Source of the DNA: Nanobdellota archaeon
GTDB lineage: Archaea; Nanobdellota; Nanobdellia; SCGC-AAA011-G17; GW2011-AR18
Direction: 5' to 3'
Length of the DNA stretch: 63,168 bases
NCBI GenBank assembly: GCA_038046085.1
Contig: JBBSWW010000003.1
Span: forward strand, 1 to 63,168
Position 1 is the first letter of the stretch; each line of letters begins with the position of its first letter. The notes under the pieces were generated by a model, which was given only the letters and a program-made list of their open reading frames with translations, was not told the DNA's origin and did no database searches. Shown here one piece after another: positions 5,823-56,100 of this stretch. The translations under genes and the position numbers were made by a program.

Positions 5823-5956
5823 TGCGGAGAACAGGATTCGAACCTGCGAAGGCACTAAGCCAATAGATATCTCAACAATCATTATAATTGCCAGATAAAA
5901 GGTTTTCACCTGCGGCCTCTTGAGTCTATTCCGTTTGGCCGCTCCGGAATCTCCGC
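5823..5956 (-). tRNA. tRNA-Leu(CAA) with a 50-nt intron, CCA not encoded
   Basis: Acceptor stem GCGGAGA/TCTCCGC. Anticodon stem ATAGA/TCTAT with loop CTCAAGA. Long variable arm TGGCTTAGTGCC. T-arm GCAGGTTCGAATCCTGT. Discriminator A. Confidence 0.85.
5869..5918 (-). other. tRNA intron at canonical 37/38 position
   Basis: 50 nt lie between anticodon-loop G37 and A38. Intron 3' part UUGAG pairs with CUCAA of the anticodon loop and leaves a 3-nt AUA bulge (bulge-helix-bulge-like). The boundary is ambiguous by 1 nt. Confidence 0.7.
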
Positions 5957-10496: not shown

Positions 10497-11426
10497 ATGA
10501 AATACTTACTATTCTTAAATAAATTTGAATTAGATGTGAATGTATTAAAAAACAAGTTAAAAAATAAAGTAAATAATTTTACAGAAAGTGAAGGAAGATT
10601 AGTCATAGAATCAGATCAAGATATAAGTGAAGAACTAAAACAATTACATGAAGTAAAAAAATATTATATAATAAGCACAGAATGGAAAGACTTAGATTTC
10701 AAAAGACTAAAAGGAGATGCATTAAGAACAATAAAAAATTATAAAACATACATCATAGAAACTAAATTCATAGATAAAATGCCCATATCAGCAAAATCAG
10801 TATATAAACAGATAAATCCATACTTAAAATATGAAGGAATAACTGTAGATGAGAATAATCCAGAAGTTGTATTATATGTAGAATTTAAAAAAGAAAACGA
10901 TAAAAGGTACTATAGAGTATGTTATAATGAAAGACAGAAAATGGAAAAAATAAAACCAATAGAAATGGAATATAAAAACTTCTATGTAGTATTAGAAGAA
11001 CCAAGAATAGTAGAAGAGATAAGTGATTTCTTAAGATTATGCTGGATATTCAAGATGCCATTATACATAATAACAAAAAAACAAAATGAAGTAGAAAATG
11101 TGTTAAAAAAAGCAAAAGAGATAACAAAAGGAATAGTATATGAAGAAATGATAATAAAATACATACCATACTTATCAAAAGATTATATAAAAGTAGGATT
11201 TACAAAACACGCAACACAAAATGAGAAAGAACTAGTAAAATTCTTTGATAAAAATGATGAAGAAAAAATAATGCTAGTATTCGGAAATGATACATATGGA
11301 TTAAGCCAGGAAGTAAGAGATGATTTAGATCATTGCTTTAGATTAACACCAGAACTAAATAAACCATTAAAAGCTAATCAAGCATTAAGTTATGTATTAG
11401 GAATATTTACAGGAAGAAAAATTTAA
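10497..11426 (+). CDS. SPOUT-class (TrmH/SpoU-like) RNA methyltransferase with N-terminal THUMP-like extension
   Basis: C-terminal knot motifs LVFGNDTYGLSQEV and LNKPLKANQALSYVLGIF. The N-terminal 150 aa are of alpha/beta type. The THUMP assignment is inference. Confidence 0.6.
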   Translation: MKYLLFLNKFELDVNVLKNKLKNKVNNFTESEGRLVIESDQDISEELKQLHEVKKYYIISTEWKDLDFKRLKGDALRTIKNYKTYIIETKFIDKMPISAKSVYKQINPYLKYEGITVDENNPEVVLYVEFKKENDKRYYRVCYNERQKMEKIKPIEMEYKNFYVVLEEPRIVEEISDFLRLCWIFKMPLYIITKKQNEVENVLKKAKEITKGIVYEEMIIKYIPYLSKDYIKVGFTKHATQNEKELVKFFDKNDEEKIMLVFGNDTYGLSQEVRDDLDHCFRLTPELNKPLKANQALSYVLGIFTGRKI

Positions 11427-12259
11427 TCCTTAGAAATTCTTTTTCTTTTAACACTCTCAGATTGATCAAGATAATTTTCATTAGAAGTTATAGTTTTTCC
11501 TATCTCTTTTTCAGCTTCTTTTCTAGCATTTCCTGCAACTTTTCCACCTCTAATGGCTTTATCTTTACAATCATCAAAACCTTCAGCGTTCTCATTTTTT
11601 GTTATTTCGGTTGTAACTCTCTCACCTAACATTGTAAATATCAACTCTAAATCATTCATATGATCTCTAAGATTTTCTTTATTTAAATTCTTGAAACTTT
11701 TGTATTCTTCAACTGTTTTACCAAAAGTAGCTTTAGATATTTCATTAGTCAATATTGCAAATTCTACATCTTCTTTAACATCATGTTTTTTCCATTCATC
11801 TGTCAATTCTTGCCTAACTGCTATTCCACGAACTCTTTTCTCAATCCAATCATCAGAATAACCTTTAAGCCTGTATAACTCTTTCATTCTTTGTTGAGCG
11901 AGTTCTGGATCTGCAATTTCTTTAACTCTTTCATAACCGACCTGAGCAAGCCATAATTTGAAAGGTTCTGCTTTAGGGGATGTTATAGACTGAACTATAC
12001 GAAACGCTCCTTTTGTATTAGTACAATTCATATTTTGTTTACCACCAGAAGTATCAATAGGAAGGGTAGTGGCAATTTGCCCCCATCCTTTGGAAAGTTC
12101 TTCATCACGTCTTCTCATATCTTTAAGATAACCTTTAGGATCTTTAGAATCAATTAATACAAAAATAATATCCTCTATAACAAACCACCACTCATTATTA
12201 TGCCAAGTTTTCCTAATATTCTTACCTTCAAAAACTGAAATAGCATTATTCGAGTCCAT
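11423..12259 (-). CDS. Bro-N domain / DinD-like DNA-binding protein (phage antirepressor-type)
   Basis: N-terminus FEGKNIRKTWHNNEWWFVIEDI is Bro-N-like. The C-terminal half resembles E. coli DinD (LIFTMLGERVTTEI...GGKVAGNARKEAEKEIG). Mixed codon usage. Confidence 0.65.
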   Translation of the reverse strand: MDSNNAISVFEGKNIRKTWHNNEWWFVIEDIIFVLIDSKDPKGYLKDMRRRDEELSKGWGQIATTLPIDTSGGKQNMNCTNTKGAFRIVQSITSPKAEPFKLWLAQVGYERVKEIADPELAQQRMKELYRLKGYSDDWIEKRVRGIAVRQELTDEWKKHDVKEDVEFAILTNEISKATFGKTVEEYKSFKNLNKENLRDHMNDLELIFTMLGERVTTEITKNENAEGFDDCKDKAIRGGKVAGNARKEAEKEIGKTITSNENYLDQSESVKRKRISKD

Positions 12260-12364: not shown

Positions 12365-14137
12365 TTATTTCTTAACAACATCTAATTTCATATGAATATC
12401 TTTCAAGAACTCTGGAGTCCAATCCTGAGGAGAACTATCCATAGGATTTTCTGCAGATTTATTCTTAGGGAAAGCAATGACTTCACGGATATCATCAACA
12501 CCATTAAGCAAAGCACAGAATCTGTCAAAACCTAAAGCAAGACCACCATGAACTGGGGCTGAGTATTTGAAAGCATTAAGTAAAAAGTCAAACTTCTTTT
12601 CAGCTTCTTCATAAGTAAGACCAAGAACTTTAAGAGTCCTAATTTGAACATCTTTCTTATGAATCCTGATAGAACCTCCACCTAATTCAACTCCGTTAAG
12701 AACAACATCATAAGCTTTAGCACGAACTCTATAAGGATCTTTTTCTAAGTATTCAACATCTTCGTTCATAGGAGAGGTGAAAATATGATGACGAGCCTGC
12801 CATGAATTAGAATCTTCATTAAATTCAAATAATGGGAAATCAACAACCCAGCAGAACCTGAAATCATCTTTCTTCATCAAATTTAATTTTTTACCAATGT
12901 GAAGTCTTACTTGACCAAGACCAGTACAAGCTTTTTCAAATTCATCAGCAGCAAACAATAATAGATCTCCATCTTTAGAATTTGTAGATTTAATCAATTC
13001 CTTTTGAATATCATCAGAGATATACTTAACAATAGAACTCTCTAATTTATTACCTGCTATAACTTTAGCCCAAGCTAAACCTGGAAGTTTGTATAATTTA
13101 GCAACAGTAATAAGTTCTTCAATATCAGTCCTAGAGAATTTACCACAACCTGTAGCATTCAAACAATAAACAGAACCATATTTCTTATTCAAGACATTAG
13201 TGAAAACAGAGAAACTTGATTTCTTAACAATATCACTAACATTAACAAATTCTAAACCGAATCTTAAATCAGGCTTATCAGAACCATACTTAGACATAGC
13301 TTCATGGAAAGTAAGTCTCTGGAAAGGAGTTTTAATATCCTTATTAAGAACTTTCTTGAAAACATTCTTTATAAGACCTTCAACAATATTCTGGATATCT
13401 TCCTGTTCGATGAAAGACATCTCAAGATCAATTTGAGTAAACTCTGGTTGACGGTCAGCTCTTAAATCTTCATCTCTTAAACAACGAGCTAACTGGAAGT
13501 AACGATCACAACCAGCAACCATCAATAACTGCTTATACATTTGAGGAGATTCAGGAAGAGCATAAAACTTACCAGGATGAACTCTTGAAGGAACTTTGAA
13601 AACTCTAGCACCACCAGGAGTAGTCTTTACGAACATTGGGGTTTCTATTTCCATAAAATCTTGAGATGAAAGATATTCACGAGCAGCTTGAGCAGCTTTA
13701 TGTCTATTAAATAATCTATTCTGCATGACAGGACGTCTTAAATCCAAGTACCTATATTGTAATCTTAATTCTTCATTAATTTCAGCTCTATCATCAATCT
13801 CAAAAGGTGGAACTTCAGATTCGTTAATAATATTCAATGACTTACAATCAACTTCTATCTCACCAGTAACAATATGTTTATTCTCCATACCTTTTGGTCT
13901 AGTTCTTATTGAACCTGTAACCTGAATACACCATTCTCTTCTTAGCTTATCAGCATCAGGCATTTTGGTAGGATCTAATACTATTTGAGTAATACCATAT
14001 CTATCACGTAAATCTATAAAGATAATACCACCATGATCTCTCCTAGAAGCGACCCAACCACAAAGAATAGTTCCTTTCTCAATATCTTTAGAAGTTAGTT
14101 CCCCGCATGTGTGTGTTCTAAAACTAGTTTTTGACAT
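12365..14137 (-). CDS. aspS: aspartyl-tRNA synthetase, bacterial type with GAD insertion
   Basis: 590 aa. RTHTCGELT...CGWV..RRDHGGIIFIDLRDRYG, class II motif 2 FRDEDLRADRQPEFTQIDLEMSF, motif 3 GGLALGFDR, and an insertion of roughly 130 aa (PGLAWAKV...). Confidence 0.95.
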   Translation of the reverse strand: MSKTSFRTHTCGELTSKDIEKGTILCGWVASRRDHGGIIFIDLRDRYGITQIVLDPTKMPDADKLRREWCIQVTGSIRTRPKGMENKHIVTGEIEVDCKSLNIINESEVPPFEIDDRAEINEELRLQYRYLDLRRPVMQNRLFNRHKAAQAAREYLSSQDFMEIETPMFVKTTPGGARVFKVPSRVHPGKFYALPESPQMYKQLLMVAGCDRYFQLARCLRDEDLRADRQPEFTQIDLEMSFIEQEDIQNIVEGLIKNVFKKVLNKDIKTPFQRLTFHEAMSKYGSDKPDLRFGLEFVNVSDIVKKSSFSVFTNVLNKKYGSVYCLNATGCGKFSRTDIEELITVAKLYKLPGLAWAKVIAGNKLESSIVKYISDDIQKELIKSTNSKDGDLLLFAADEFEKACTGLGQVRLHIGKKLNLMKKDDFRFCWVVDFPLFEFNEDSNSWQARHHIFTSPMNEDVEYLEKDPYRVRAKAYDVVLNGVELGGGSIRIHKKDVQIRTLKVLGLTYEEAEKKFDFLLNAFKYSAPVHGGLALGFDRFCALLNGVDDIREVIAFPKNKSAENPMDSSPQDWTPEFLKDIHMKLDVVKK

Positions 14138-14244: not shown

Positions 14245-14778
14245 ATGAATAATATAGAATTTGAGATAAGAAGTTTTATTTCAAAAGATAAATACAATGA
14301 ATTAATAGAATTTTTCAAGAACAATGCAGAATTTTTGAATGAAGATTATCAAGAAACATATTACTTTGATACAAAAGAAGACCTAAGAATACAGAAAAAC
14401 AATTACTTCTCTAAAATCTGGATGAAGAAAGGAAAAATGCATGATGAACAAAGAGAAGAAATAGAAATAAAGTTTGAAAAAGAGGATTTTGAAAAACTAG
14501 AAAAAATGTTTACAAGCATAGGAATAAATGTAAATATAAAATGGTTCAGAACAAGACATAATTACAAATGGGATGATATAGTAGTATCAATAGATTATAC
14601 AAGAGGATATGGATATATAATAGAATTAGAAAAAATGAGCACAGAAGAGAATAAAACTAAAGTTTTAGAGGAATTAAAAAAACATTTCGAGATGTTAAAA
14701 ATACCATTAACTTCTAAAGAAGAATTTGACAACCAATTCAAGAATTATAAAGAGAACTGGAAGACATTAACTGCCTAG
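14245..14778 (+). CDS. CYTH domain protein (CyaB-like class IV cyclase / triphosphatase fold)
   Basis: IEFEIRSF (ExExK-type start), QETYYFD, DLRIQK, REEIEIKF, WFRTRHNYKW, SIDYTRGYGYIIELE. Confidence 0.7.
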   Translation: MNNIEFEIRSFISKDKYNELIEFFKNNAEFLNEDYQETYYFDTKEDLRIQKNNYFSKIWMKKGKMHDEQREEIEIKFEKEDFEKLEKMFTSIGINVNIKWFRTRHNYKWDDIVVSIDYTRGYGYIIELEKMSTEENKTKVLEELKKHFEMLKIPLTSKEEFDNQFKNYKENWKTLTA

Positions 14779-19857: not shown

Positions 19858-20196
19858 ATGAAGCAGGCAATAATCATACGTAAAGACTTGAAATTACCAA
19901 CAGGAAAAGCAGTATCTCAAGGAGCGCACGCAGCAGTAGAAGCTGTATTAAGAAGTGATAAAGATAAAGTCAAATCCTGGAGAGAGAGTGGAATGCCAAA
20001 AATAGTCTTGAAAGTAAATGATCTAAAAGAATTACAGAAATATAACCAGATAGCAAAAGACAATGGGTTAGTAACTGCTTTAATAACAGATGCAGGAAGG
20101 ACAACAGTAGAACCAGGAACAGTAACATGTCTAGCAATAGGGCCAGATAAAGAAGAAAAGATAGATAGAGTAATAAAAGAATTAAAATTATACTAA
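19858..20196 (+). CDS. pth2: peptidyl-tRNA hydrolase, archaeal type
   Basis: 112 aa. KQAIIIRKDLKLPTGKAVSQGAHAAV...PKIVLKV...ITDAGRTTVEPGTVTCLAIGP. Confidence 0.9.
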   Translation: MKQAIIIRKDLKLPTGKAVSQGAHAAVEAVLRSDKDKVKSWRESGMPKIVLKVNDLKELQKYNQIAKDNGLVTALITDAGRTTVEPGTVTCLAIGPDKEEKIDRVIKELKLY

Positions 20197-20243: not shown

Positions 20244-20603
20244 ATGGCAAATAATACAGTACGTAATTTATTTGATGAGTGCTTAGCTAAATCAAATGCA
20301 GGATATGTATCCACACAAGGAAATACTACAACCGCAGATATTAGGCTGGGCAGTAATAATCTTAGAATATTGTATTCAAATGATGAATCATCTGAAAATC
20401 TTAAAGCAGAATTATATAATCATGAAGGAGAATTGGTACATGATTTATCGCTTTCCTGTTCATATAATAGGGCTGTAATGACAGAGGATTGCTATTTTAC
20501 ACCTACTTTTAAATCAATGTCACATATAAAAAATTTAAGGTCTAATTTCATAAGAGCTTTAGAACAAATACTATCGACAGAACAAATTTCTATGCTTTCT
20601 TAG
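20244..20603 (+). CDS. hypothetical protein
   Basis: 119-aa ORF with no motif. Confidence 0.4.
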   Translation: MANNTVRNLFDECLAKSNAGYVSTQGNTTTADIRLGSNNLRILYSNDESSENLKAELYNHEGELVHDLSLSCSYNRAVMTEDCYFTPTFKSMSHIKNLRSNFIRALEQILSTEQISMLS

Positions 20604-21207
20604 CAAAGACTTCAATCCAATCGTTTTCTTCGTCATTAGATTCAGTTGATTCAATAATAACAAAACCATTACTTATTAATAAATCATTCAATTCTTTTTT
20701 CTGGTAGAAAGCATAAAACCTAGGAGAATTGTCATATCTCTCTTTCTCAATAATCTGTTCACTATCACCCTTCTTGACAGCAATATATAAAATCCCATCT
20801 TTCTTCAATGCTTTAGAGAAATTCTTTATGAGTTTAGGAGCTTCAGATTTAGGAATATCAGCAAGAGTAGCCATACACCATATACCAACAAATTCATCAT
20901 CAGAAGACATCTCTAAAAGATTTCCTTTAATAGTATCAACATTTAGTTTCTTAGCTTCTTCAATCATACCATCAGAGAAATCAACTGGGATAACATCTAA
21001 ACCCTCTTCTTTAAGATAGTTTGAGTCTCTACCTGAACCAGATCCCGCATCTAATATTTTTCCTTTTTCAGGAAGCAATGATATAAAATTATTTAACTGG
21101 AACTGCATAATCTTTGATGAAGTATAGTCTGCATAAATCTTAGAAAACTTATTATAAGTCTGAATGGCTAATTGAATCTTATCCTTTGCAGAGAGTTCAT
21201 TATCCAT
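20590..21207 (-). CDS. class I SAM-dependent methyltransferase
   Basis: Motif I ILDAGSGSGRDSNYL followed by an acidic loop (VIPVDFSD). Confidence 0.75.
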   Translation of the reverse strand: MDNELSAKDKIQLAIQTYNKFSKIYADYTSSKIMQFQLNNFISLLPEKGKILDAGSGSGRDSNYLKEEGLDVIPVDFSDGMIEEAKKLNVDTIKGNLLEMSSDDEFVGIWCMATLADIPKSEAPKLIKNFSKALKKDGILYIAVKKGDSEQIIEKERYDNSPRFYAFYQKKELNDLLISNGFVIIESTESNDEENDWIEVFAKKA

Positions 21208-21321
21208 TGTCTATTTTTTAGTAACAACAATATTTAAGCTTTTTGATGTTATAGATCAAATTCTTCAATAAAAATTAATTTTACAGCAAGATTTATTAAT
21301 ATATTAATTTAAAATTCTAAT

Positions 21322-22392
21322 ATGCAGATAAAAGAAGAGGTGCGTGAGATAGTTTCAAATCTAGATATAAGAGATATTGCCTTCTTATTAGAGTGTTCTT
21401 TGAAAATAACAAAACAGAAAATGGCAAATAATATGGCACAGGAAGCTATAAACTGCTTGAAAAATTATGATCATTTCACAGACTTAATACTAGAATTCTA
21501 TTTATTACAGAATAAAAATCTAAGATGTGCTGCAATATCTGGAGTAGATAATGAGACAAGAAATGTATACATAGGAAGAAGAATAATTAGGGGATCAATA
21601 ATAGCACAGTCATTCATAAACAATAAGATAATATTCCATACAGAAGCAGAAAAAGAACCCTCAAGAAGAGGTGAATTCATAACAGTAAACAGGATAAAAT
21701 CATCACTAATAATACCTATAGAGCGATTAGGAGTGATAACAATAAACAGGTTTGACAAGAAAAAATTCAACTTACATCATATAAAATTCATAAAACTATT
21801 CATAGATGTAATAAAATCATCATTAGAATTAGCAATAGACAATGAGAAAAACTTTAATGCAGCAATAAGAGACCAATTAACTGGATTATATAACCACGGA
21901 TATTTTGCATTTGAATTAAAGAAATATATAGAGAATGCAAGAAGAGCAAACCACAATATAAGCCTGATAATGATAGATGTAGATTATTTCAAAAAATACA
22001 ATGATCAGAACGGGCATCCAAAAGGTGATGAGTTATTAATAAAATTAGGAAAGATATTAAGAGTCAATACAAGGTCAGCAGATATAGTTGCTAGATATGG
22101 AGGAGAGGAGTTTGCTGTTGTATTACATAATGCAAAATTAAAAGATGCAGTAAATAAGGCTGAACTATTAAGAAAAGCAGTATCAGAATATAAATTCTAT
22201 AATGAAGAAAGCCAGCCGGATAAGGATTTAACAATAAGCTTAGGAGTATCAAGTTTCCCAGACAATGCAGACAATGCTGAAGATCTAGTCATAAGAGCAG
22301 ATAAGGCATTATATTACAGCAAAAACAATGGAAAGAACAAAGTAACATCCTACAATAAAGTAAGTCATAAACTCTCAATAATATCACAATAA
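21322..22392 (+). CDS. GAF-like sensor + GGDEF diguanylate cyclase
   Basis: RDQLTGLYNHGYF, IMIDVDYFKKYND, active site RYGGEEF, I-site RSAD five residues upstream, and ADKALYYSKNNGKNKV. The N-terminal 170 aa are GAF-like. Confidence 0.85.
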   Translation: MQIKEEVREIVSNLDIRDIAFLLECSLKITKQKMANNMAQEAINCLKNYDHFTDLILEFYLLQNKNLRCAAISGVDNETRNVYIGRRIIRGSIIAQSFINNKIIFHTEAEKEPSRRGEFITVNRIKSSLIIPIERLGVITINRFDKKKFNLHHIKFIKLFIDVIKSSLELAIDNEKNFNAAIRDQLTGLYNHGYFAFELKKYIENARRANHNISLIMIDVDYFKKYNDQNGHPKGDELLIKLGKILRVNTRSADIVARYGGEEFAVVLHNAKLKDAVNKAELLRKAVSEYKFYNEESQPDKDLTISLGVSSFPDNADNAEDLVIRADKALYYSKNNGKNKVTSYNKVSHKLSIISQ

Positions 22393-23510
22393 TGCTTCCA
22401 AGAATATTTATTTTTTAATTTCTTAATATTATCAGAGAATTCTTTCTTCTTATCATTTTTATATAATCTTATAACAGCATCAGCCAAAGCTTTAGGATCT
22501 TTAGAATGAACAACAAAACCAGTCTTATTGTTTTCAACAAGTTCAGGAAGACCACCAACATCAGTACAAATTACAGGAGTGTTGAAATTATAAGATATTT
22601 GAATAGGACCAGACTGAGTAGCAGATGTATAAGGGAGAACTAAAACATCTGATCTAGCGAAATATTCACCAACAGAGTCATTAGGAACATAACTGTCTAT
22701 TACTTCAATATTCTTTTCAAGACCTAATCTTTTTATCTCATCAAAATAGAACTTCCTATTATTCCTTGATTTACCTGTCAAAAATTTAGTTAAAAACTTA
22801 TTAATAAAACCATTATTCTCCCAGAATTCACCAACAATCAATAATTTAATATCAATCTTTTTAATAATCATAGGCATAGCTTTAATCAAATAAATCAAGC
22901 CCTTATATTCCCTTATATAACCAAAGAAAAGAATCTTTTTATTATATCTGGATGTGAACTTAGAATTACTCTTAAACATATCATAAACAGGGTGAAAACT
23001 TAAAATAGTCTTTTTATCTTTATTAATCTTTAAAGAATCCTCAAAATCTTTATTAGAATGGACAATAAAGTATTCTACATTTTTAAAAAAAGCTTTTCTT
23101 AAAATATTATCTAAAAAAGTACCCTCATGCTGAAGAACATTATGAGCAATACAAACAATCTTTGACTTAGTCTTGATCAAATGTGAAATGGTAGTATAAA
23201 TCGGAGAAACAATAGGAGATAACCATGTAAAAATAACAATATCTGGATTCATATTATTAATAATCTTAGCAGCTTTAAACCAAGAAAAAGGATTATAGAA
23301 ATCAAGCAAGAAATCTTTATTTTCCTTAATCAAATGTTCGTCTTTTTTCTCAATAGGATCAATTGGATAGATAATCTTAGGATATTGTCTTTTCCAGCTA
23401 ATAACTTTAACTTCATTATTTTTAACTAATTCATTAACAAGACTAGAATTGAAATGAGACAAACCACCCTTATAAGGAGGAACTGGACCTATGACAACAA
23501 TCTTCTTCAT
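22365..23510 (-). CDS. glycosyltransferase family 4 (GT-B)
   Basis: VGGLPELVENNKTGFVV (EX7E-type region). 381 aa. Confidence 0.8.
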   Translation of the reverse strand: MKKIVVIGPVPPYKGGLSHFNSSLVNELVKNNEVKVISWKRQYPKIIYPIDPIEKKDEHLIKENKDFLLDFYNPFSWFKAAKIINNMNPDIVIFTWLSPIVSPIYTTISHLIKTKSKIVCIAHNVLQHEGTFLDNILRKAFFKNVEYFIVHSNKDFEDSLKINKDKKTILSFHPVYDMFKSNSKFTSRYNKKILFFGYIREYKGLIYLIKAMPMIIKKIDIKLLIVGEFWENNGFINKFLTKFLTGKSRNNRKFYFDEIKRLGLEKNIEVIDSYVPNDSVGEYFARSDVLVLPYTSATQSGPIQISYNFNTPVICTDVGGLPELVENNKTGFVVHSKDPKALADAVIRLYKNDKKKEFSDNIKKLKNKYSWKHYCDIIESL

Positions 23511-23546
23511 GATATTAAATTATGATAAACATTTAAATACCTTATT

Positions 23547-25088
23547 ATGAAGAAAAGATTAATGGATATAAATACAGATACGGCATTAAAGAACATAGCA
23601 AAAGGAGCAAGCCTTGCATTTGCTGGAATAATAATCTCAAAAATACTTGGATATTCATACAGGATAATAGTAGCAAGGCTAGGACCGGCAGATTATGGAC
23701 AGTTATCAATAGCACTAGCAATATTCAATTTTTTTGGGATAATAGCAATACTAGGATTAACACAGGGAATACAAAGATATGTCCCATATTATAATGCCAG
23801 AAAAGAATATGGAAAAGCAAGAGGAATAGTATTGTATAGTCTTAAATTATCATTCATAACAGGATTATTAATAGGAATACTATTATTCTTATTCTCAGAT
23901 TATATAGCAATAAACTACTTCCATGAAGAAAAATTATCAATATTAATAAAACTAGTGGCATTCATAATACCAATAGATGTAATCAGAAATATATTCCTTA
24001 ACCTATGCAAATCATATAATTATATAATACCAGAAATATATGCGAGAAATTTCGCTGAAAACTTTGTAAAAGTAATATTAACACTAGTCTTCTTATTATT
24101 AGGATATGGATTATTAGGAGCAACATTTGCATACATCTCAGCAATAACAATAAGTTGCATAATATCATATTATCTTGCAAGAAAATTATACAATTACAGA
24201 AAAGATGTAAAACCAGAATATGATAAAAAAATATGGCTCAATTATTCAATACCATTACTAATAAACCATTTCTTATTATTAATAATGTTATGGACTGATA
24301 CGTTCTTATTAGGATATTTCAAAACAAGCACAGATGTAGGAATCTATAATGCCGCAGCACCAACAGCACAACTAATCTATATATTCCCGGCTGCACTACT
24401 AAGCCTATTCCTTCCAGTACTAAGCAACTTATATTCAAAAAATGAAAAAAAATCATTCAACACATGCTATTCAACAGTCACAAAATGGATATTCATAATA
24501 AACATGTTATTCTTATTAGGACTTGTAGTATTTTCTAAACAAATAATAACATTATTGTTCGGAGCAGAGTATTATACAGGATATCTAGCATTAATAATAT
24601 TATCAGTATGCTATTTTGTCTATCATCTAAGCCTTACATCAAATAATATCATGATGATATATGAAAGAACAAAAACAGTATTCCTAATATCATTAATCGG
24701 AGCAGTACTTAATGTGATATTAAATTATTACCTAATACCAACATATAGTTATACAGGAGCAGCAATATCAACAGGAATATCAGTATTAGTAATGGGAATA
24801 ATAAACTTCATAGTAGCATATAAAATAACAAAATATAATCCAATAAACAAAAAATACATAAAAATCTTATTAATAACAATACTATTATTCATAGCATCAT
24901 ATTACATAAGCAATATAATACAATATAATTATTTACTTGTTGCATTAGTCTCATTATCAACATTCATAATATATACACTGTTGTTATTAGCATTTAAAGT
25001 ATTTAACGATGAAGACATAAAGATATTAAGATATATAGAAAAAGGATTTGTAAATAAAATAATAAAAATACTTAAGAAATTTATTTAG
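23547..25088 (+). CDS. polysaccharide flippase (Wzx/MOP family)
   Basis: 513 aa with about 12-14 hydrophobic segments. Polysacc_synt-like N-terminus (KGASLAFAGIIISKILGYSYRIIVARLGPADYG). Located in the GT cluster. Confidence 0.7.
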   Translation: MKKRLMDINTDTALKNIAKGASLAFAGIIISKILGYSYRIIVARLGPADYGQLSIALAIFNFFGIIAILGLTQGIQRYVPYYNARKEYGKARGIVLYSLKLSFITGLLIGILLFLFSDYIAINYFHEEKLSILIKLVAFIIPIDVIRNIFLNLCKSYNYIIPEIYARNFAENFVKVILTLVFLLLGYGLLGATFAYISAITISCIISYYLARKLYNYRKDVKPEYDKKIWLNYSIPLLINHFLLLIMLWTDTFLLGYFKTSTDVGIYNAAAPTAQLIYIFPAALLSLFLPVLSNLYSKNEKKSFNTCYSTVTKWIFIINMLFLLGLVVFSKQIITLLFGAEYYTGYLALIILSVCYFVYHLSLTSNNIMMIYERTKTVFLISLIGAVLNVILNYYLIPTYSYTGAAISTGISVLVMGIINFIVAYKITKYNPINKKYIKILLITILLFIASYYISNIIQYNYLLVALVSLSTFIIYTLLLLAFKVFNDEDIKILRYIEKGFVNKIIKILKKFI

Positions 25089-25899
25089 ACTTTTTAATCA
25101 AAAAACTCCAGTCAGAAGCCATAAATGAAGGCAATCTTTCTGCAAGATAACAATCAAACTTCTGTAAAGGTTTGTACTTGGAATAAATTCTTGAGATGAT
25201 ATAAACACCTAAAAGGAAATAAGTATTCTTATGCTTAACAATCTTAAAATTATTATTTTTTAATAACTTCTTAAAAGACCTCATTGTGAAAAATTGTTCA
25301 TGAATAGCACCTTCATTATGAGTGTTCAAAGTATCAATACCATAACTACTGAAACAATCCTGCTCCTGAGAAGTTTTTTTAAGTTTCCATTTAAGATTAC
25401 GAGCTTTCTCATATAATCCAATACCTTTAAGGAACTTACCGAAATAAGCATATGGCTTAAGACTTAATTCAGTAGGACCATAACCATTAGGAATTGTAAT
25501 TATCAACAACCCATCATCTTTCAATAATCTTTGAATACTTGAGACTAACTTTTCAGGATGTTTAAGATGTTCCAAAACTTCAGGAGAAACAATAACATCA
25601 TATTTTTCTTTAATATTAATATCATGAGCATTAGCAACCTTAAATTTACAATTCTTGAATTTATTTTTTTTATTAGCATAATCAACAGAAGCTTTATCAA
25701 TATCAATACCTAAGACATTATAACCATTAGATGCTATCTGAAGAGAGATATTACCAACACCACAACCAACATCAAGGATCTTCAATTTCCTATTAGGATG
25801 AGCTTTCTGGAAATCCTCAACAGCAGAAAGAATAAAATTAAGTTTATTAACATAATGAACCATAATCTTCTGTAAAATAGAATAATCAATCTTAGCCAT
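25081..25899 (-). CDS. class I SAM-dependent methyltransferase
   Basis: Motif I ILDVGCGVGNISLQIA, then GIDID and SPEVLEHL. Confidence 0.75.
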   Translation of the reverse strand: MAKIDYSILQKIMVHYVNKLNFILSAVEDFQKAHPNRKLKILDVGCGVGNISLQIASNGYNVLGIDIDKASVDYANKKNKFKNCKFKVANAHDINIKEKYDVIVSPEVLEHLKHPEKLVSSIQRLLKDDGLLIITIPNGYGPTELSLKPYAYFGKFLKGIGLYEKARNLKWKLKKTSQEQDCFSSYGIDTLNTHNEGAIHEQFFTMRSFKKLLKNNNFKIVKHKNTYFLLGVYIISRIYSKYKPLQKFDCYLAERLPSFMASDWSFLIKKSK

Positions 25900-25933
25900 A
25901 AAAAGTGGATTAAATAACTAATTATAAAACTTA

Positions 25934-26158
25934 CTACTCTGTATCATTAATAACAATAGCATTAACAGGACAGGATTTTTCAGCTTCCTTAGCCTTAACA
26001 GAAAGCTCAGAATCAATAGGAATAAAATCCTTATCATGATTAACAACCTTTAACTCACCATCAATCTCAACGAATTCCCATTTCTCAGGACAGGCAGAAA
26101 CACAAGCACCGCAAGCAATACAAGTAGACTCATCATGTGAAATCTTCAATTCTTTCAT
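25934..26158 (-). CDS. small ferredoxin (single Fe-S cluster type)
   Basis: CIACGACVSACP ... CPVNAI. 74 aa. Confidence 0.8.
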   Translation of the reverse strand: MKELKISHDESTCIACGACVSACPEKWEFVEIDGELKVVNHDKDFIPIDSELSVKAKEAEKSCPVNAIVINDTE

Positions 26159-26172
26159 AAGATAATATTAAT

Positions 26173-26874
26173 TTAATTCTTTATATCATTTTCTAATATG
26201 TCGTTTTGTAAGATATTCTTCTCAGGAACGCCGATATTCAATAAAAAATTATTAACAGCTGAAATCATGTCATTAGGACCACATATACAGAATATACTAT
26301 CTTTATCTTTTATTACATCCTTAATATAAGACTCATCAATTTTTTTATTATAACCATTCCACAAAGAATCAGCAGTAACAACATAATTATTTTTTAATTT
26401 ACCAATACTAAAAGCAAAATTATCCAATTCTACTTTGAAAGCTAAATCATCCATCTTATCAACAGAATAAATAAGATTTAATTCTACATCAGCACGATTC
26501 TGCATAATCTGCCTAATCAAAGAAATGAATTTAGTTATACCAGTGCCTATTGCTATCAGAGTGAAAGATTTAATGTTATTATAACTAAGAGGCAGACCAT
26601 AAGGTCCTGAAATTGTAATATCATCACCTTCTTTCAGATTATTAAATAAATATTCAGATAACTTATCATCAGGAGATGATTTAATCATAATCTCAATAAG
26701 AGTAGCAGCTTCAGGAGGTGTTGTAACATAGAAATGCCTAGTTTCGTCTTTAATTTTAAGAGCAATAGCCTGACCAGGAATAAAATCAATCTTACCATAA
26801 GGAATCATCCTAATCAACCTGATATTTTTTGATACAAATTCAGTCTCAAGAACAGAAGCAGTAATATTTTCCAT
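26173..26874 (-). CDS. ferredoxin-NADP reductase-like FAD/NAD(P) oxidoreductase
   Basis: RHFYVT (RxYS/T FAD motif), IAIGTGITKF (NAD(P) motif), CGPNDM. I took the ATG at 26874; the track start at 26886 is TTG. Confidence 0.75.
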   Translation of the reverse strand: MENITASVLETEFVSKNIRLIRMIPYGKIDFIPGQAIALKIKDETRHFYVTTPPEAATLIEIMIKSSPDDKLSEYLFNNLKEGDDITISGPYGLPLSYNNIKSFTLIAIGTGITKFISLIRQIMQNRADVELNLIYSVDKMDDLAFKVELDNFAFSIGKLKNNYVVTADSLWNGYNKKIDESYIKDVIKDKDSIFCICGPNDMISAVNNFLLNIGVPEKNILQNDILENDIKN

Positions 26875-26987
26875 AAAAAGAAGCAAAATCCAATACTTAA
26901 AAAGTTTGTGATGATATATTACATAATTCTGAAAATTTACAGTTTTTAATCGTTAACTTTAAATATGGACTAAATTTATATAAATTA

Positions 26988-28559
26988 ATGAGTAAACCTA
27001 TAGCACTAGTACAGGTAAGCAATCCTGAAGATATGAGAATAGCTCCACTAGCGCACTTGTTTGTTGGAGGTGCGTTAAAAAGAGAGGGATATGAACCTAA
27101 AGTATTCCATATAAATTCTGAAAATTTAAATAAAGCAGTAAAAGATATACTAAGCATAGATCCAATGTTTGTAGGATTTTCTGTAATAACAGGAAACCAG
27201 ACAAGGGAATCAGCAAATCTATCAAGGATGTTAAAGAAAGAAAAACCTGAACTACCAATAATATGGGGAGGGGTACATCCATCATTATTACCAAAAGAGA
27301 CAGTAAAAGAGGATTATATAGACTATGTAGTAAATGGAGAGGGAGATAGTATAATCATAGACATAGCAAGAATGTTCGAAGGAAAGACAAGAGCAGAAGA
27401 TATACTTGGATTATGCTATAAAAGAAATGGGATACCAATATTAAACGGTCCAAGACCATTAATAGAAGACTTAGACCAGCTAGATTTAGACTTTGATTTA
27501 ATAGATGTAGAATCACATTTAGAACATGAATGGAATAATAAAAGAGTATTAGGATTCATAACAAGCAGAGGATGCCCATTTAATTGTGGATTCTGCTTTA
27601 ACCAGAGATTCAACCAGAGAAGATGGAGAGCACAGTCAGACAAGAAAGTAATAGAAAAAGTAAGTTACCTAAAAGATAAATACGGAATAGATGGAATAAA
27701 ATTCTATGATGACCTATTATTCTCAAATCCACAAAGAGCAGTAAGATTACTAGAAGCAATAAACTTACCATGGTATGGAGAGGTAAGAGTAGGAATGTTA
27801 CATGATGATCTAGTAAAGAAATTAGTCTCTACACAATGCAGGGAATTATTATTAGGACTAGAATCAGGATCAGACAGGATGTTAAAGTTAATGAACAAAC
27901 TACAGACAGTAGAACAGATAAAAAGAGGGATAAAAGCATTAACAAAAGCTCCTGACTTAAAACCAGTAGGATCATTCATAATGGGAATGCCAACAGAGAG
28001 CAAAGAAGAAACATTCCAGACAGTAGATTTAGCATTAGAACTAAGTGAGATACATCCAAGAATGAGATTCAGCTTTGGATTCTATTTACCATATCCTGGA
28101 GCTGATTTATACGAACTTGCATTAAAGATGGGATTTGTACCGCCAGTAAAAACAGAAGACTGGGATAGCTTAGACAGATGGGCAAATAAACTAGAATTAA
28201 AATGGCTAGACTGGACACATGATTCAGAATATTTCAGGAAAATAAGAGATTACTTTAATTTATTACCATTAAGAGATGTAAAATTACCAATAATATCAAA
28301 GATACCTGAAAAAAGACTTAGAGAAAGAGACTTCAGCCATATAAGAGAGCTAGAAATACTTAGTAACTTACAAAAAAAATATTCACACAAAAATAATATG
28401 TTCAGCAAAGTAGTATTGAAATCACTACCATACATCAGATCAAAAAGATTACCAAAAGATGTACAGATAAACCAGATACCAGTAATAAACAATAATGTCA
28501 ATACAGTACCTATAGGAAATGGAAAAGAACAGGTAATATCAGGAATATCAGTCAAGTAA
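26988..28559 (+). CDS. B12-binding-domain radical SAM enzyme
   Basis: N-terminal cobalamin-binding-like domain, then SRGCPFNCGFC (Cx3Cx2C). 523 aa. Confidence 0.85.
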   Translation: MSKPIALVQVSNPEDMRIAPLAHLFVGGALKREGYEPKVFHINSENLNKAVKDILSIDPMFVGFSVITGNQTRESANLSRMLKKEKPELPIIWGGVHPSLLPKETVKEDYIDYVVNGEGDSIIIDIARMFEGKTRAEDILGLCYKRNGIPILNGPRPLIEDLDQLDLDFDLIDVESHLEHEWNNKRVLGFITSRGCPFNCGFCFNQRFNQRRWRAQSDKKVIEKVSYLKDKYGIDGIKFYDDLLFSNPQRAVRLLEAINLPWYGEVRVGMLHDDLVKKLVSTQCRELLLGLESGSDRMLKLMNKLQTVEQIKRGIKALTKAPDLKPVGSFIMGMPTESKEETFQTVDLALELSEIHPRMRFSFGFYLPYPGADLYELALKMGFVPPVKTEDWDSLDRWANKLELKWLDWTHDSEYFRKIRDYFNLLPLRDVKLPIISKIPEKRLRERDFSHIRELEILSNLQKKYSHKNNMFSKVVLKSLPYIRSKRLPKDVQINQIPVINNNVNTVPIGNGKEQVISGISVK

Positions 28560-28594
28560 AAACTTTTATATAAAACCTAAAACCTATTTCTAGA

Positions 28595-29581
28595 ATGAAA
28601 ACAATATTCCTAAACAATGCACCACACCCATCACATGGAATATGGGCAAATTCAATAAACTCAATATTCATAGATGACAGAGTAAAAGAATACAGAGTAA
28701 AAAATCTATCAAGACTTACAAAATCATTAGAAACAGTATTCAAGATACCAAAAGATGCTGAATTCGTATTATGTGAGAGCGCATCGCAACTTCTTACAGG
28801 AATATTATGGAAGATAAATCACAGGAATAAGAAATTAGGACTGATAGTATCAGACCCAAAATATTATCATATGTGGAAAATGACATCAATGAAGAAAAAA
28901 TTATACATCTGGATGTTAAAAAAAGTTGATATCTTCATATGCAGCTCACAACTAATGAAAGATTATTTACCAGAAGAGTGCAGAAAAAGAGCTTTTGTTG
29001 TACCTCCAGCATTCAATAGAGAGGATTATAAAAAAATTAGAGGCAACATTAATAGTAAGAACATAATATTCACAGCAAGAATATGTCTAGAGAAAGGGGT
29101 TGATCACTTAGTTGATGTATTTTTAAAAGTAAAAGAGAAACATAAAGAATCTAAATTGTATTTAATGGGAGCAAGCTCTTACATACCAGGACAGGGAAAT
29201 TTAAGAGAACAATTAGAATCAAGAAAATTAAAAAACATAATATTCACAGGACATGTAGATACAAAACCATACTTAAAAAAATGTTCAATATATGTCAATT
29301 TAGCATGGATAGAACCAGCATCAGTATCAGTAATACAGGCAATGTGCACAGGAATAGTACCAATAGTAAATAAAAATGTGGGGAACAAAACCTATGTAGA
29401 AATGATAGATAAAGAACTAGTAGTCAATAGTGATGAACAGGCAGAAAGAATGATATTAAAACTATGGAAAAACAAGAAATTACTTGAAAGATATTCTAAA
29501 AGAGCTATAGAAGTAAGCAAAACATATCCAGATGAGAAAGAGAGTATAAGATTATTCAGAGAAGCAATAAAAACATTATAA
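28595..29581 (+). CDS. glycosyltransferase family 4-like (GT-B)
   Basis: EKGVDHLVDVF...KLYLMGA...EPASVSVIQAMCTGIVPIV pattern. 328 aa. Confidence 0.7.
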   Translation: MKTIFLNNAPHPSHGIWANSINSIFIDDRVKEYRVKNLSRLTKSLETVFKIPKDAEFVLCESASQLLTGILWKINHRNKKLGLIVSDPKYYHMWKMTSMKKKLYIWMLKKVDIFICSSQLMKDYLPEECRKRAFVVPPAFNREDYKKIRGNINSKNIIFTARICLEKGVDHLVDVFLKVKEKHKESKLYLMGASSYIPGQGNLREQLESRKLKNIIFTGHVDTKPYLKKCSIYVNLAWIEPASVSVIQAMCTGIVPIVNKNVGNKTYVEMIDKELVVNSDEQAERMILKLWKNKKLLERYSKRAIEVSKTYPDEKESIRLFREAIKTL

Positions 29582-47347: not shown

Positions 47348-47947
47348 ATGATATTAGATGTCCCATTCTATCCAGGAAAGAAGTATTATTGTGCTCAAGA
47401 TTGTGCTTTAATGGTTTTGAAATATTACTATCCAGAAAAAGAGTTTGATATTGAAGAAATTTCTAAAAAATCAGTAAAACATGAAGAATATGGAACTATG
47501 ACAATAGGATTATCTAAAGCATTAAAAGAATATAGATTAAGTGTTGAGTTTAATTATAAAACTGGAGAAGAAATGAGTGAAAAAGATAAAAAAGAATTCT
47601 TAGAAAAATATGAAGAATTCTTAAATAAAGAAAAAGATATAAGAAAAGAGGCAGAAAAAATAGGAGTAAAAATAAAAGAGAAAGATTTTACATTAAATGA
47701 ATTAAAGAAAGCAATAGATGATAATAAAGTAATTATTAGTTTAATAAATTGGAATGTATTATCTAAAAAAGAAGGATATCAAGGACATTTTGTAGTAATA
47801 ACAGGATATGATGAAAAATATGTCTATAGCCATAATCCAGGACCAAACTATCCTGAGAAAAACATGAATATCACTATAGAAATGATGGAAAAAGCAAGAA
47901 GTTATCTTGGAACAAATAAAGAAACAATTATTATATCTAAACCTTAA
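47348..47947 (+). CDS. C39-like papain-fold peptidase domain protein
   Basis: YYCAQDCALMVLKYY (Cys region) and GHFVVITGYD (His region), separated by a Lys/Glu-rich insert. Confidence 0.5.
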   Translation: MILDVPFYPGKKYYCAQDCALMVLKYYYPEKEFDIEEISKKSVKHEEYGTMTIGLSKALKEYRLSVEFNYKTGEEMSEKDKKEFLEKYEEFLNKEKDIRKEAEKIGVKIKEKDFTLNELKKAIDDNKVIISLINWNVLSKKEGYQGHFVVITGYDEKYVYSHNPGPNYPEKNMNITIEMMEKARSYLGTNKETIIISKP

Positions 47948-53167: not shown

Positions 53168-56100
53168 ATGGTAAAGATAATTGACGAAGTAAACAAGTAT
53201 TTGCCGCAAGATGCGAATATAACAGAGACAGTATTTGAGGGAGCAAACATAGTCCTCTATACAAAGAACAAGAAATTCTTATTAGACAATCAAGGAGTAA
53301 TAAAACAGATAGTTGACAATATAAAGAAACGTGTAGAGTTAAGAGCAGATCCATCAATAGTACTGGACATAGAGGATACTAAGGAATTAATCAAGAAAAC
53401 AATATCAGCAGAGGCAGGAGAGACAGAGATAATATTTGATGTTTCAAGATCAAGAGTAATAATAGAGGCAGAAAAACCAGGAATAGCAATAGGAAAAGGT
53501 GGAGATGTATTAAAAGAGATAAAAGCAAAGACTTTCTGGACACCAATAGTAAGAAGAATACCACCAATAAGATCACAATTATTAGAGAACATAAGACAGG
53601 TATTATATGATCATTCAGAATACAGAAAAAAATTCCTTAACAAAGTAGGAAAGAGAATCTATGAAGGGTGGACAAAAACTAAAAGAGATGAATGGATAAG
53701 ATTAACTTGTCTTGGAAGTGCAAGAGAGGTAGGAAGAAGCTGTTTCTTAATACAGACACCAGAATCAACAATAATGTTAGACTGTGGATTTAATGTAGCA
53801 GCACCAAGAGAGTTTGCATTCCCATATTTAGATGTTCCAGAATTCAATATACAAGAATTAGATGCAGTAATATTAAGCCATCCACATATTGATCATTGCG
53901 GAACATTACCTTACTTATACAAAATGGGATACAGAGGACCTGTTTATTGCACAGCACCAACAAGAGATGTAGCAGCATTATTATGTCTAGATATGAGTGA
54001 TATAGCAATGAAAGAGGGAAATGATCCATTATATGATACAGGAGATGTAAAAGAGATGGTGAAACATACTATCTGCTTAGATTATGGAGAGGTAGCTGAT
54101 ATAACACCAGATATGAGATTAACATTGTACAATGCAGGACATAACCTAGGAAGTGCTATGGTACACCTGCATATAGGAAATGGATTACACAATTTCTTGT
54201 ATTCATTAGATGCAAGCACTAAAATTACATTAATAGATCCAGAAAATAATACACAATTTATTGGAATAGGAGACTTTATAGATAAACAATTTGAGGAAAA
54301 AAATGGGTTAATAATAGATAATGGGTTTGTACAAGAAAAAGCAAATACAAAAGGATATGCTACAATTGCTTTTAATAAAAAAACATTAAAAAATGAAATA
54401 GTAAATATAACAAGTTTTGTAAGACATCCAATAAATGAAGAATTATATGAAATAAAAACAGAGAGTGGAAGATCAGTAAAAGTTACAAAATCACATAGTT
54501 TATTTACAGCAAAAGATGGAAAAATACTTCCTGCAGAAGTCTCAAAATTAAAAACTGGAGATTTCATAGTAGGATCAAAAAAAATACCATCATTAAATGT
54601 TAATGAACCTATAATAGATTTAATGCCTTATTCAAAAGAACTAAGAATAAAAATCGAAGATGATGCATACATAAATAATCTTATAATCAAACATGAAGCT
54701 GAATTTTCTAAATTAGAAAACAATGATAAATTAATAGTTAAAAGTGTGTTGTTTGATTATTATAAAGGTAATTATATAAAAGATATAAGAAATAAATATA
54801 AAATACACCCAAGAAGGATAAATAGAATCTTTAAACAATTAGGATTAAAAACTCATCCAAGAGTAAAGGATTCATTGCCTGATAAAGTAAGAATAACAAA
54901 GGACTTTGCAAGATTCTTAGGATATTATATCTCAGAAGGATGGCCAAATACTAAAGACCAAACAGTAGCTGTATCAAATACTAATAAAGAAATACTAGAA
55001 GATTGTTATAACATAATAAAAAAAGAATTCGGAATTGAAGGAGATCTTAGATATCAAGATGATGTTGTATTATTTACTTCTAAACAATTAAAATCATTGT
55101 TAAGTAATGTATTAAAATGTGGAAAAGATGCTTACACAAAAAGAATACCTAAAGAGTTATTATTAACAAATAGAGATGTGCAATCAGACTTGTTATATGG
55201 TCTATTTTCAGGAGATGGTGGGATAAGAGTAAGAGAAAAAGGAAGAGAGATAAACTATGCTAGTAAATCAAAAGGTCTAATAGAGGATATTAATTTTATA
55301 TTACTACAATTTGGAATAGTACCAACAATAGAATTTAATAAGACTTCAGAAATGAATAATCTGCATATTTATAATAAAGAAAAAATTGCTGAATTCTTGA
55401 GTGAAATAAATATAAATAACTCACAGAACACACAGTTAGTAGAGTCATTACTATCATTAAAACAAAATAAGGCAAGTTTTGATATGAGAATACCAATAAG
55501 TGCACTATCACAAACCATACAAAATGATATTTCAAAAACACCATGGCAAAATGCAGAAAGCTGTGGTATACAAAAATTAGAAAATGAAAATTTAACAGAA
55601 GATGACTTAAAGTTAATAAATTCTGATCTGATGTTTGATAAAATAAAATCTATTAAACAAGTAGAATCTACAGGAAAATATGTATATGACCTAAGAGTAG
55701 ATGGATATGAAAATTTCTTAGGCGGAGATGGATTCTTATTTATGCATAATACAGGAGATTTCAATTATGAGACATCTAATTTGTTAAGTTCTTCAGAATC
55801 AAAATTCCCAAGAGTGGAATCAGTAATGATGGAATCAACATACGGAACAAAACAAGATAATAGTCCATCAAGAAAAGAGAGCGAAGATGATTTAATAAGA
55901 ATAATAAATGAGACAGCAACAGCTGGAGGAAAGGTATTGATGCCAGTATTAGGAGTTGGAAGATCACAAGAGTGCATGCTGATATTAGAGAGAGCAATGG
56001 AAGAGAAGAAAATACCGCAGATGCCAATATATGTGCAGGGAATGGTATGGGATGTTACTGCGTTACATACAGCATATCCAGACTTCTTAAGCAACAGAGT

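Follow-up and report, generated by a model that had tools for sequence, protein, structure and literature searches.

Introduction

Diguanylate cyclases, the GGDEF enzymes of cyclic di-GMP (c-di-GMP) signalling, are described as almost exclusively bacterial (Braun et al. 2023, PMC10249747). For the archaea, Galperin et al. (2018) knew of one GGDEF protein, that of Methanocella arvoryzae, and doubted the others as contamination (PMC5847659), Galperin and Chou expressed the same doubt on HD-GYP domains in archaeal metagenome-assembled genomes (MAGs) (bioRxiv 10.1101/2021.11.05.467447), and for Romling (2022) the GGDEF proteins in archaeal contigs were still awaiting confirmation (PMC10086821); in metagenome surveys a few percent of archaeal MAGs are counted, without validation, as having c-di-GMP genes (PMC12781772). 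Here we describe a complete gene for a GAF-GGDEF protein of 356 amino acids (21322..22392, plus strand) on a contig of 63,168 nucleotides (JBBSWW010000003.1; the whole stretch was analysed and is called here the window) from a tiny groundwater archaeon of the DPANN/Woesearchaeota type. The open reading frame (ORF), its strand and its length are as claimed in an original prediction made from the sequence alone, and the premise of that prediction, that c-di-GMP enzymes are essentially bacterial, agrees with the literature (PMC10249747, PMC5847659, PMC10086821).

The archaeal GGDEF protein that the literature singles out, which alone comes from a complete genome, is RCIX2274 of M. arvoryzae (CAJ37382; PMC5847659; bioRxiv 10.1101/2021.11.05.467447), which by its description differs from the protein studied here, being a single ORF of a euryarchaeal methanogen with the architecture REC-PAS-PocR-GGDEF-HD-GYP and with no conserved family. 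The other systems that we compared are bacterial. PleD of Caulobacter (1w25/2wb4) and WspR of Pseudomonas align to the GGDEF domain without gaps, and their catalytic, guanine-binding and RxxD residues are alike at equal spacing, with a root-mean-square deviation (rmsd) of 2.3-2.4 Å between our model and the isolated WspR GGDEF domain; they differ in having REC receiver inputs where a GAF domain stands here, and PleD has R390 where this protein has L282. For the AlphaFold2 (AF2) model of the full-length protein (mean predicted local distance difference test, pLDDT, 89.4), the best matches are the GAF-GGDEF enzyme Dcsbis (PA2771 of Pseudomonas aeruginosa, 4zmu) and the phytochrome-linked cyclase 5llw. 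Dcsbis, which among targets of similar length matches the whole model best, has the same domain order and a similar size (353 aligned columns against a target of 341 residues, E 3e-18), but it is only 20% identical and its TM-score is low (0.44-0.46) because the domain orientation differs. The GAF-GGDEF architecture is also that of Lcd1, a cAMP-activated diguanylate cyclase of Leptospira interrogans, whose cAMP-bound GAF domain (5w10) gave the highest TM-score of all with our N-terminal model, 0.72; the identity between the two GAF domains is 17-18% only, and the likeness is one of fold.

This kind of protein is ordinary and is already correctly named in GenBank, where the exact matches MEK6947702.1 and MEK6955176.1 carry the name (GAF sensor-containing) diguanylate cyclase; what is unexpected is the domain of life. 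Judging from its residues and its setting, the gene probably encodes a resident, functional, cytoplasmic, GAF-regulated diguanylate cyclase of a DPANN archaeon (Woesearchaeota/Nanoarchaeota in NCBI naming), whose enzymatic activity, dimer mechanism, ligand and downstream targets we infer. A literature search on archaeal, DPANN and Woesearchaeota diguanylate cyclases found no paper describing this family. For one family, the locus provides a clean positive answer to the question whether archaeal GGDEF ORFs are real or contamination, in the form of a cyclase gene that is apparently catalytically intact, resident, vertically inherited and constrained in a reduced DPANN genome.

The GGDEF domain retains the residues expected of a cyclase

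The GGDEF domain, placed at residues 181-343 (21862..22350; all features of the gene are on the plus strand) by PF00990, TIGR00254, the alignment to PleD and WspR and superposition, scores at the sequence level far above chance. PF00990 gave 162.9 bits against a cut-off of 23.8 over its entire length (model positions 1-161 of 161, residues 181-340), TIGR00254 gave 177.7 bits against 37.4, and all 24 of the 24 family members examined matched PF00990, so that the profile search proposed along with the original prediction exceeded its thresholds widely. The signature motifs named there are translated at the expected coordinates, namely DQLTGLYN (21871-21894), DVDYFKKYND (21976..22005) and RYGGEEF, in which R258 and Y259 precede the GGEEF motif of the A-site (residues 260-264, 22099..22113).

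In the gap-free alignment, residue n of our protein corresponds to residue n+108 of PleD, and invariance was judged among 24 orthologues. Within DVDYFKKYND, D219 (PleD D327), which we take to be a Mg2+ ligand, and N227 (PleD N335) are both invariant, as is D236 (22027-22029; PleD D344), and N227 and D236 presumably serve in guanine recognition. R258 (PleD R366) and the whole of GGEEF (PleD 368-372) are likewise invariant, the latter in 24 of 24 sequences. Towards the C-terminus, K334 (PleD K442) is invariant and K338 is a conservative change from PleD R446 and nearly invariant, two positions that we assume to bind phosphate. R251 and D254 (PleD R359 and D362), invariant in 24 of 24 and taken by us to form the I-site, belong to the motif RSAD (22072..22083), the putative primary inhibitory site, which is separated from GGEEF by the five residues IVARY exactly as in PleD; the stretch spanning RxxD to GGEEF is RSADIVARYGGEEF (22072-22113). 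The canonical RxxD site at PleD-like spacing that had been claimed is therefore present, and the description of the enzyme as catalytically intact holds at the level of residues, since the predicted catalytic and I-site positions are all there and invariant in the family.

The AF2 model of the domain superposes on the GGDEF domains of WspR, DosC, SadC and a Marinobacter protein with an rmsd of 2.2-3.0 Å over about 164 residues.

The N-terminal half is a predicted divergent GAF domain

Upstream of the catalytic domain, residues 1-150 (21322..21771) fold in the model into three helices and a five-stranded divergent GAF sensor, as also indicated by fold and profile searches, and residues 151-182 (21772..21867) form a signalling helix, assigned by DSSP in the model, that links GAF to GGDEF. 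This linker helix of 32 residues carries a DNEKN motif in which N174, E175 and N177 are invariant. The original prediction had placed a GAF-like sensor at this position, a claim that stands by structure model and profile search and fails by the Pfam cut-off. More specifically, the gathering cut-offs of the GAF families (PF01590, PF13185 and PF13492) were missed, with 18.3 bits against 28.6 for GAF_2, therefore by Pfam's criterion the protein is not a GAF member, and sub-threshold GAF matches occurred in only 5-6 of the 24 family members (best E 2.3e-4). A sequence-only profile of the N-terminal region compared with the PDB gave only a marginal GAF match (E 0.13), and a fold search was needed. 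For a model of residues 1-178 built from the family alignment (pLDDT 91.4, predicted TM-score 0.87), the top 50 PDB matches obtained with Foldseek were GAF domains in 50 of 50 cases, with a best E of 1.7e-7 (3o5y). When the profile of this domain was searched against 1.84 billion representative proteins, about a dozen family members of about 350 amino acids were recovered, followed by long proteins that matched in 4-10 stretches each with E down to 1.7e-18; four of these long proteins were examined and have 4-14 Pfam GAF domains each, two of the four being histidine kinases, and for the multi-GAF kinases 10-14 GAF repeats were confirmed. The confident model, the fold search and the profile search together assign the N-terminal half, as modelled, to a divergent GAF domain, in which the invariant E58, R68 and R116 may be considered candidate pocket residues on the basis of their conservation.

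By analogy with bacterial GAF-GGDEF enzymes, a mechanism can be proposed in which two subunits would dimerise through their GAF domains and long linker helices, and a small ligand bound in the GAF pocket would shift these helices. Upon this movement the two GGDEF half-sites, each with GTP and Mg2+, would be brought face to face and convert two GTP into c-di-GMP, which may in turn bind the RxxD I-site (R251, D254) and cause allosteric feedback inhibition. As the protein is defined, soluble and 356 amino acids long, archaeal use of c-di-GMP becomes directly testable.

The gene is resident in an archaeal genome

The contig is archaeal. The window encodes PTH2, PAC2, a short RNase J, Kae1, a class-I CCA-adding enzyme, a 20S proteasome subunit and DUF460, as well as FttA/aCPSF1, the archaeal termination factor with a KH domain, and archaea-specific genes flank the GGDEF gene on both sides. 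The nearest of these markers, the archaeal/eukaryotic-type peptidyl-tRNA hydrolase PTH2 (19858..20196, plus strand; PF01981, 133.9 bits), lies 1.1 kb upstream. A tRNA-Leu(CAA) gene with a long variable arm (5823-5956, minus strand; Rfam, 38 bits) has a 53-nt insertion in the anticodon loop that is probably an archaeal intron; Rfam alone recovered it, whereas ARAGORN at default settings reported no tRNA for the window. The GC content of the window is uniform (25-34%), and the NCBI labels of the identical protein, of its 90% cluster and of the orthologues are Nanoarchaeota, Woesearchaeota and archaeon GW2011_AR18, Woesearchaeota being the label of the orthologues. The archaeal gene context asserted in the original prediction is confirmed by these genes, notably FttA, the proteasome subunit, PAC2, Kae1, the class-I CCA enzyme, PTH2 and the tRNA with its probable intron.

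When c-di-GMP genes turn up in archaeal MAGs, the literature by default takes the gene to be bacterial and the contig to be chimeric, mis-binned or contaminated, and reviews view the GGDEF and HD-GYP ORFs of such MAGs as potential contamination (PMC5847659; bioRxiv 10.1101/2021.11.05.467447). Two features of our own data could be read in the same way, a bacterial-type aspartyl-tRNA synthetase (AspRS) with a GAD insertion in the window and one family member that was binned as Patescibacteria. However, the locus order PTH2, methyltransferase, GGDEF, GT1 glycosyltransferase, flippase was recovered independently, with identical junctions, in at least six runs or assemblies, Hainich groundwater included, and as the same gene order was assembled independently so many times an assembly chimera is excluded. 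The composition of the gene is not distinguishable from that of its neighbours either: relative to the genes of the window its GC content has z = +0.29, its GC at third codon positions z = +1.44, and its synonymous-codon log-likelihood z = -0.55 (rank 16 of 57), which gives quantitative support to the host-like codon usage noted in the original prediction. With PTH2 at 1.1 kb, archaea-specific genes on both sides of it within the 63-kb contig, and the PTH2 synteny repeated in orthologous loci that are about 50% identical, we regard a bacterial or chimeric origin of the sequence as barely credible.

The AspRS itself (12365-14137, minus strand; 590 amino acids) is of bacterial type with a GAD insertion despite the archaeal genome. 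In four family loci it keeps its synteny with the GGDEF gene, and it has the appearance of a bacterial gene that was acquired long ago and became fixed in this neighbourhood.

The gene belongs to a constrained archaeal family

About 25 proteins from Woesearchaeota/Nanoarchaeota MAGs make up the family, with identities to the query of 37-54%. The phylogeny that had been proposed as a check was built by neighbour joining from 122 GGDEF domains. In it the family is monophyletic, with a bootstrap of 99/100 for its core and 63/100 once the divergent members are added; this tree showed no bacterial group as a stable sister or donor lineage, sister frequencies being at most 22/100. The nearest matches outside the family are bacterial, from Omnitrophota, Calditrichota, Nitrospirota and Clostridia, with 40-55% identity in the GGDEF domain. 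A scan of GTDB genomes keyed on RYGGEEF and DYFKxYND had generic bacterial GGDEF proteins among the matches listed and gave no taxonomic information on the family.

Synteny was analysed in nine family loci, which represent about six lineages. In most of these the GGDEF gene is preceded by a common block of bacterial-type AspRS, peptidase M3, PTH2, S-adenosylmethionine (SAM)-dependent methyltransferase and HhH-GPD glycosylase, an order that is kept even though the identity of the family proteins to the query is no more than 37-54%. The SAM methyltransferase is the most conserved close neighbour (seven of nine loci), and PTH2 lies upstream in five loci. Against the 90%-identical orthologue L091, located on a 144-kb contig, the ratio of nonsynonymous to synonymous substitution rates (dN/dS) of the GGDEF gene is 0.073 (GAF 0.072, GGDEF 0.047), to be compared with 0.091 for PTH2 and 0.14 for AspRS; the gene is under strong purifying selection, as constrained as PTH2 and more tightly than AspRS.

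These data also bear on the idea that the gene arrived recently by horizontal transfer, as a passenger without a role in the archaeon. In favour of it, the GGDEF domain is clearly of bacterial type and its nearest matches outside the family are bacterial. Its composition is nevertheless fully ameliorated, its family is monophyletic and deeply diverged, its chromosomal position is conserved and its dN/dS is low, which makes a recent passenger highly improbable. On the strength of independent assembly, composition, phylogeny, synteny and dN/dS we therefore reject contamination, chimerism and recent passage; the gene, which the original prediction took to be resident and neither a fresh transfer nor a contaminant, is vertically inherited within the clade. 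Most likely, it was acquired once from a bacterium by the ancestor of the archaeal clade and has been kept since.

Observations that count against an archaeal c-di-GMP cyclase

The following observations weigh against reading the gene as a functional cyclase of an archaeon. First, c-di-GMP has gone undetected in any archaeon (Braun et al. 2023, PMC10249747). Second, a full-length but divergent family member, about 40% identical (locus L101, 534-1574, plus strand; its gene call is truncated to 258 amino acids), is carried by a 2.6-kb contig that was assigned to a Patescibacteria MAG (GCA_023379505.1). The GC content of this contig is 38.7% against 26-31% in the archaeal loci, and the flanks of the gene gave no match, to those loci or otherwise. 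Either the contig is mis-binned or it hints at exchange between bacteria of the candidate phyla radiation and DPANN archaea. Third, the arginine of the secondary I-site of PleD (R390) is aligned to L282 here. An invariant arginine, R284, is found two residues beyond, and this secondary arginine is not known to be universal among diguanylate cyclases with an I-site. Fourth, no EAL, HD-GYP, PilZ or MshEN domain was detected in any scanned ORF of the window, which for EAL, HD-GYP and PilZ is what the original prediction had reported, no c-di-GMP riboswitch was found in the window, and no c-di-GMP partner was seen among the genes called in about 17 kb of extra flank beyond the window ends, which makes about 80 kb covered in total.

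The lack of turnover or receptor partners nearby would fit a protein that bound nucleotide and made no c-di-GMP in vivo, acting as a sensor of GTP or c-di-GMP, as a scaffold, or as a cyclase for another dinucleotide such as cyclic GMP-AMP (cGAMP). Many bacterial GGDEF proteins are receptors through their I-site, and Hypr GGDEF proteins, with a serine or threonine in place of the guanine-specificity aspartate, reportedly produce cGAMP; on Hypr enzymes PMC10249747 cites Hallberg 2016. Receptor-only GGDEF proteins usually have a degenerate A-site, however, whereas in this family GGEEF, the presumed Mg2+ ligand and the phosphate-binding lysines are all conserved. A Hypr enzyme was ruled out as a candidate because the aspartate is kept: D236 is invariant and no Ser or Thr occupies the position of PleD D344. 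We find it unlikely that the protein is such a nucleotide binder or a cyclase for another dinucleotide in vivo.

It is possible, and we put it forward tentatively, that this Woesearchaeota-type DPANN clade runs a genuine c-di-GMP pathway with one GAF-regulated cyclase. Its receptors and degrading enzymes would then be non-canonical, since neither EAL, HD-GYP and PilZ domains nor a riboswitch were seen, and the finding points towards receptors and phosphodiesterases of this sort. If true, this would be the first c-di-GMP system in Archaea, and it might govern surface or attachment functions in an ultra-small, probably partner-dependent organism.

Nucleotide-related genes near the family loci

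The conserved-neighbour analysis of the nine loci yielded no candidate effector, as only upstream housekeeping genes are conserved. The sole nucleotide-phosphoesterase candidate seen near the locus is a 375-amino-acid protein with a weak DHHA1 match (L100, 1-912, plus strand), located roughly 19 kb past the right end of the window, which could equally be an archaeal RecJ/GAN-like nuclease.

A CYTH-domain protein, with the fold of class IV adenylate cyclases and triphosphatases, is encoded at 14245-14778 (plus strand), and its gene lies 3-8 kb from the GGDEF gene in four loci (the window, L091, L088 and L097). Speculatively, it could supply the GAF domain with a nucleotide ligand, or it may just belong to the synteny block. 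In another MAG (GCA_053531355.1; L087, 11472-14253, minus strand), a CHASE2 class-III nucleotide cyclase of 642 amino acids and a FecR-domain protein are found about 0.4 kb downstream of the GGDEF gene, the former being another bacterial-type second-messenger enzyme on an archaeal contig. Taking the CYTH protein and this CHASE2 cyclase as partners of the GGDEF protein was rejected as over-reading, and a possible supply of cyclic nucleotide monophosphate to the GAF domain is a lead only. Elsewhere in the window, a 199-amino-acid protein (47348-47947, plus strand) matches PF09778 ('Guanylylate cyclase') with 75 bits and also peptidase C39-like families; it probably has a C39-like peptidase fold rather than that of a cyclase.

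The downstream glycan island

Downstream, the GGDEF gene converges with a gene for a GT1 glycosyltransferase, the two overlapping by 28 nt at their 3' ends. This GT1 gene opens a variable glycan-synthesis island (22365..29581, annotated with Pfam) that further encodes a Wzx-type flippase, a methyltransferase, a ferredoxin, an FAD/NAD oxidoreductase, a B12-radical SAM protein and a second GT1. The original prediction noted the convergence on a glycan cluster, which is correct, and saw in it a mirror of bacterial c-di-GMP control of exopolysaccharides, which the comparison of loci does not bear out. If the enzyme specifically controlled the adjacent cluster, in the way that c-di-GMP acts on bacterial exopolysaccharide synthases, the convergence with GT1, the flippase and glycan-modifying genes behind it, and the same arrangement in the 90%-identical L091 would fit. 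However, only the window and L091 have the island beside the GGDEF gene; it is missing downstream of the orthologue in L087, L088, L089/94/95, L097 and L090, and unrelated genes follow instead, in four other lineages. Being lineage-specific, the association gives little support to functional coupling. Moreover, Pfam detected no PilZ, MshEN or other known c-di-GMP-binding module in the GT1 and flippase proteins, and the conserved neighbours of the gene are the housekeeping genes upstream, so that specific control of the island appears rather unlikely.

Within the island, a B12-binding radical-SAM enzyme is encoded at 26988-28559 (plus strand), and a further ORF lies at 25934-26886 (minus strand); together with the ferredoxin, a small 4Fe-4S protein, and the FAD/NAD(P) oxidoreductase, the radical-SAM enzyme points to an uncommon modification of sugars or lipids, such as methylation, in this variable surface-glycan cluster.

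Promoter region and other genes of the window

The neighbour on the other side is the SAM-dependent methyltransferase of TehB/Methyltransf_23 type (20590..21207, minus strand), identified by Pfam and by clustering of neighbours. It is divergent from the GGDEF gene, and the AT-rich intergenic region of 114 nt between the two (21208..21321) is the presumed promoter region, with TTTATTAATATATTAA located 10-25 nt before the ATG, TATA-like strings being without significance in a genome of 29% GC.

The ORF of FttA/aCPSF1 (53168-56620, plus strand; 1150 amino acids), composed of KH, metallo-beta-lactamase and beta-CASP domains, is split by an intein with a LAGLIDADG homing endonuclease, and in the orthologous locus L088 it is an Lhr-type helicase that carries an intein. 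Finally, a Bro-N domain protein, of a type typical of phages and mobile elements (11423-12259, minus strand), and a Fic/DOC-family protein (41749-42705, plus strand) are possibly related to mobile elements or toxins within an otherwise housekeeping region.

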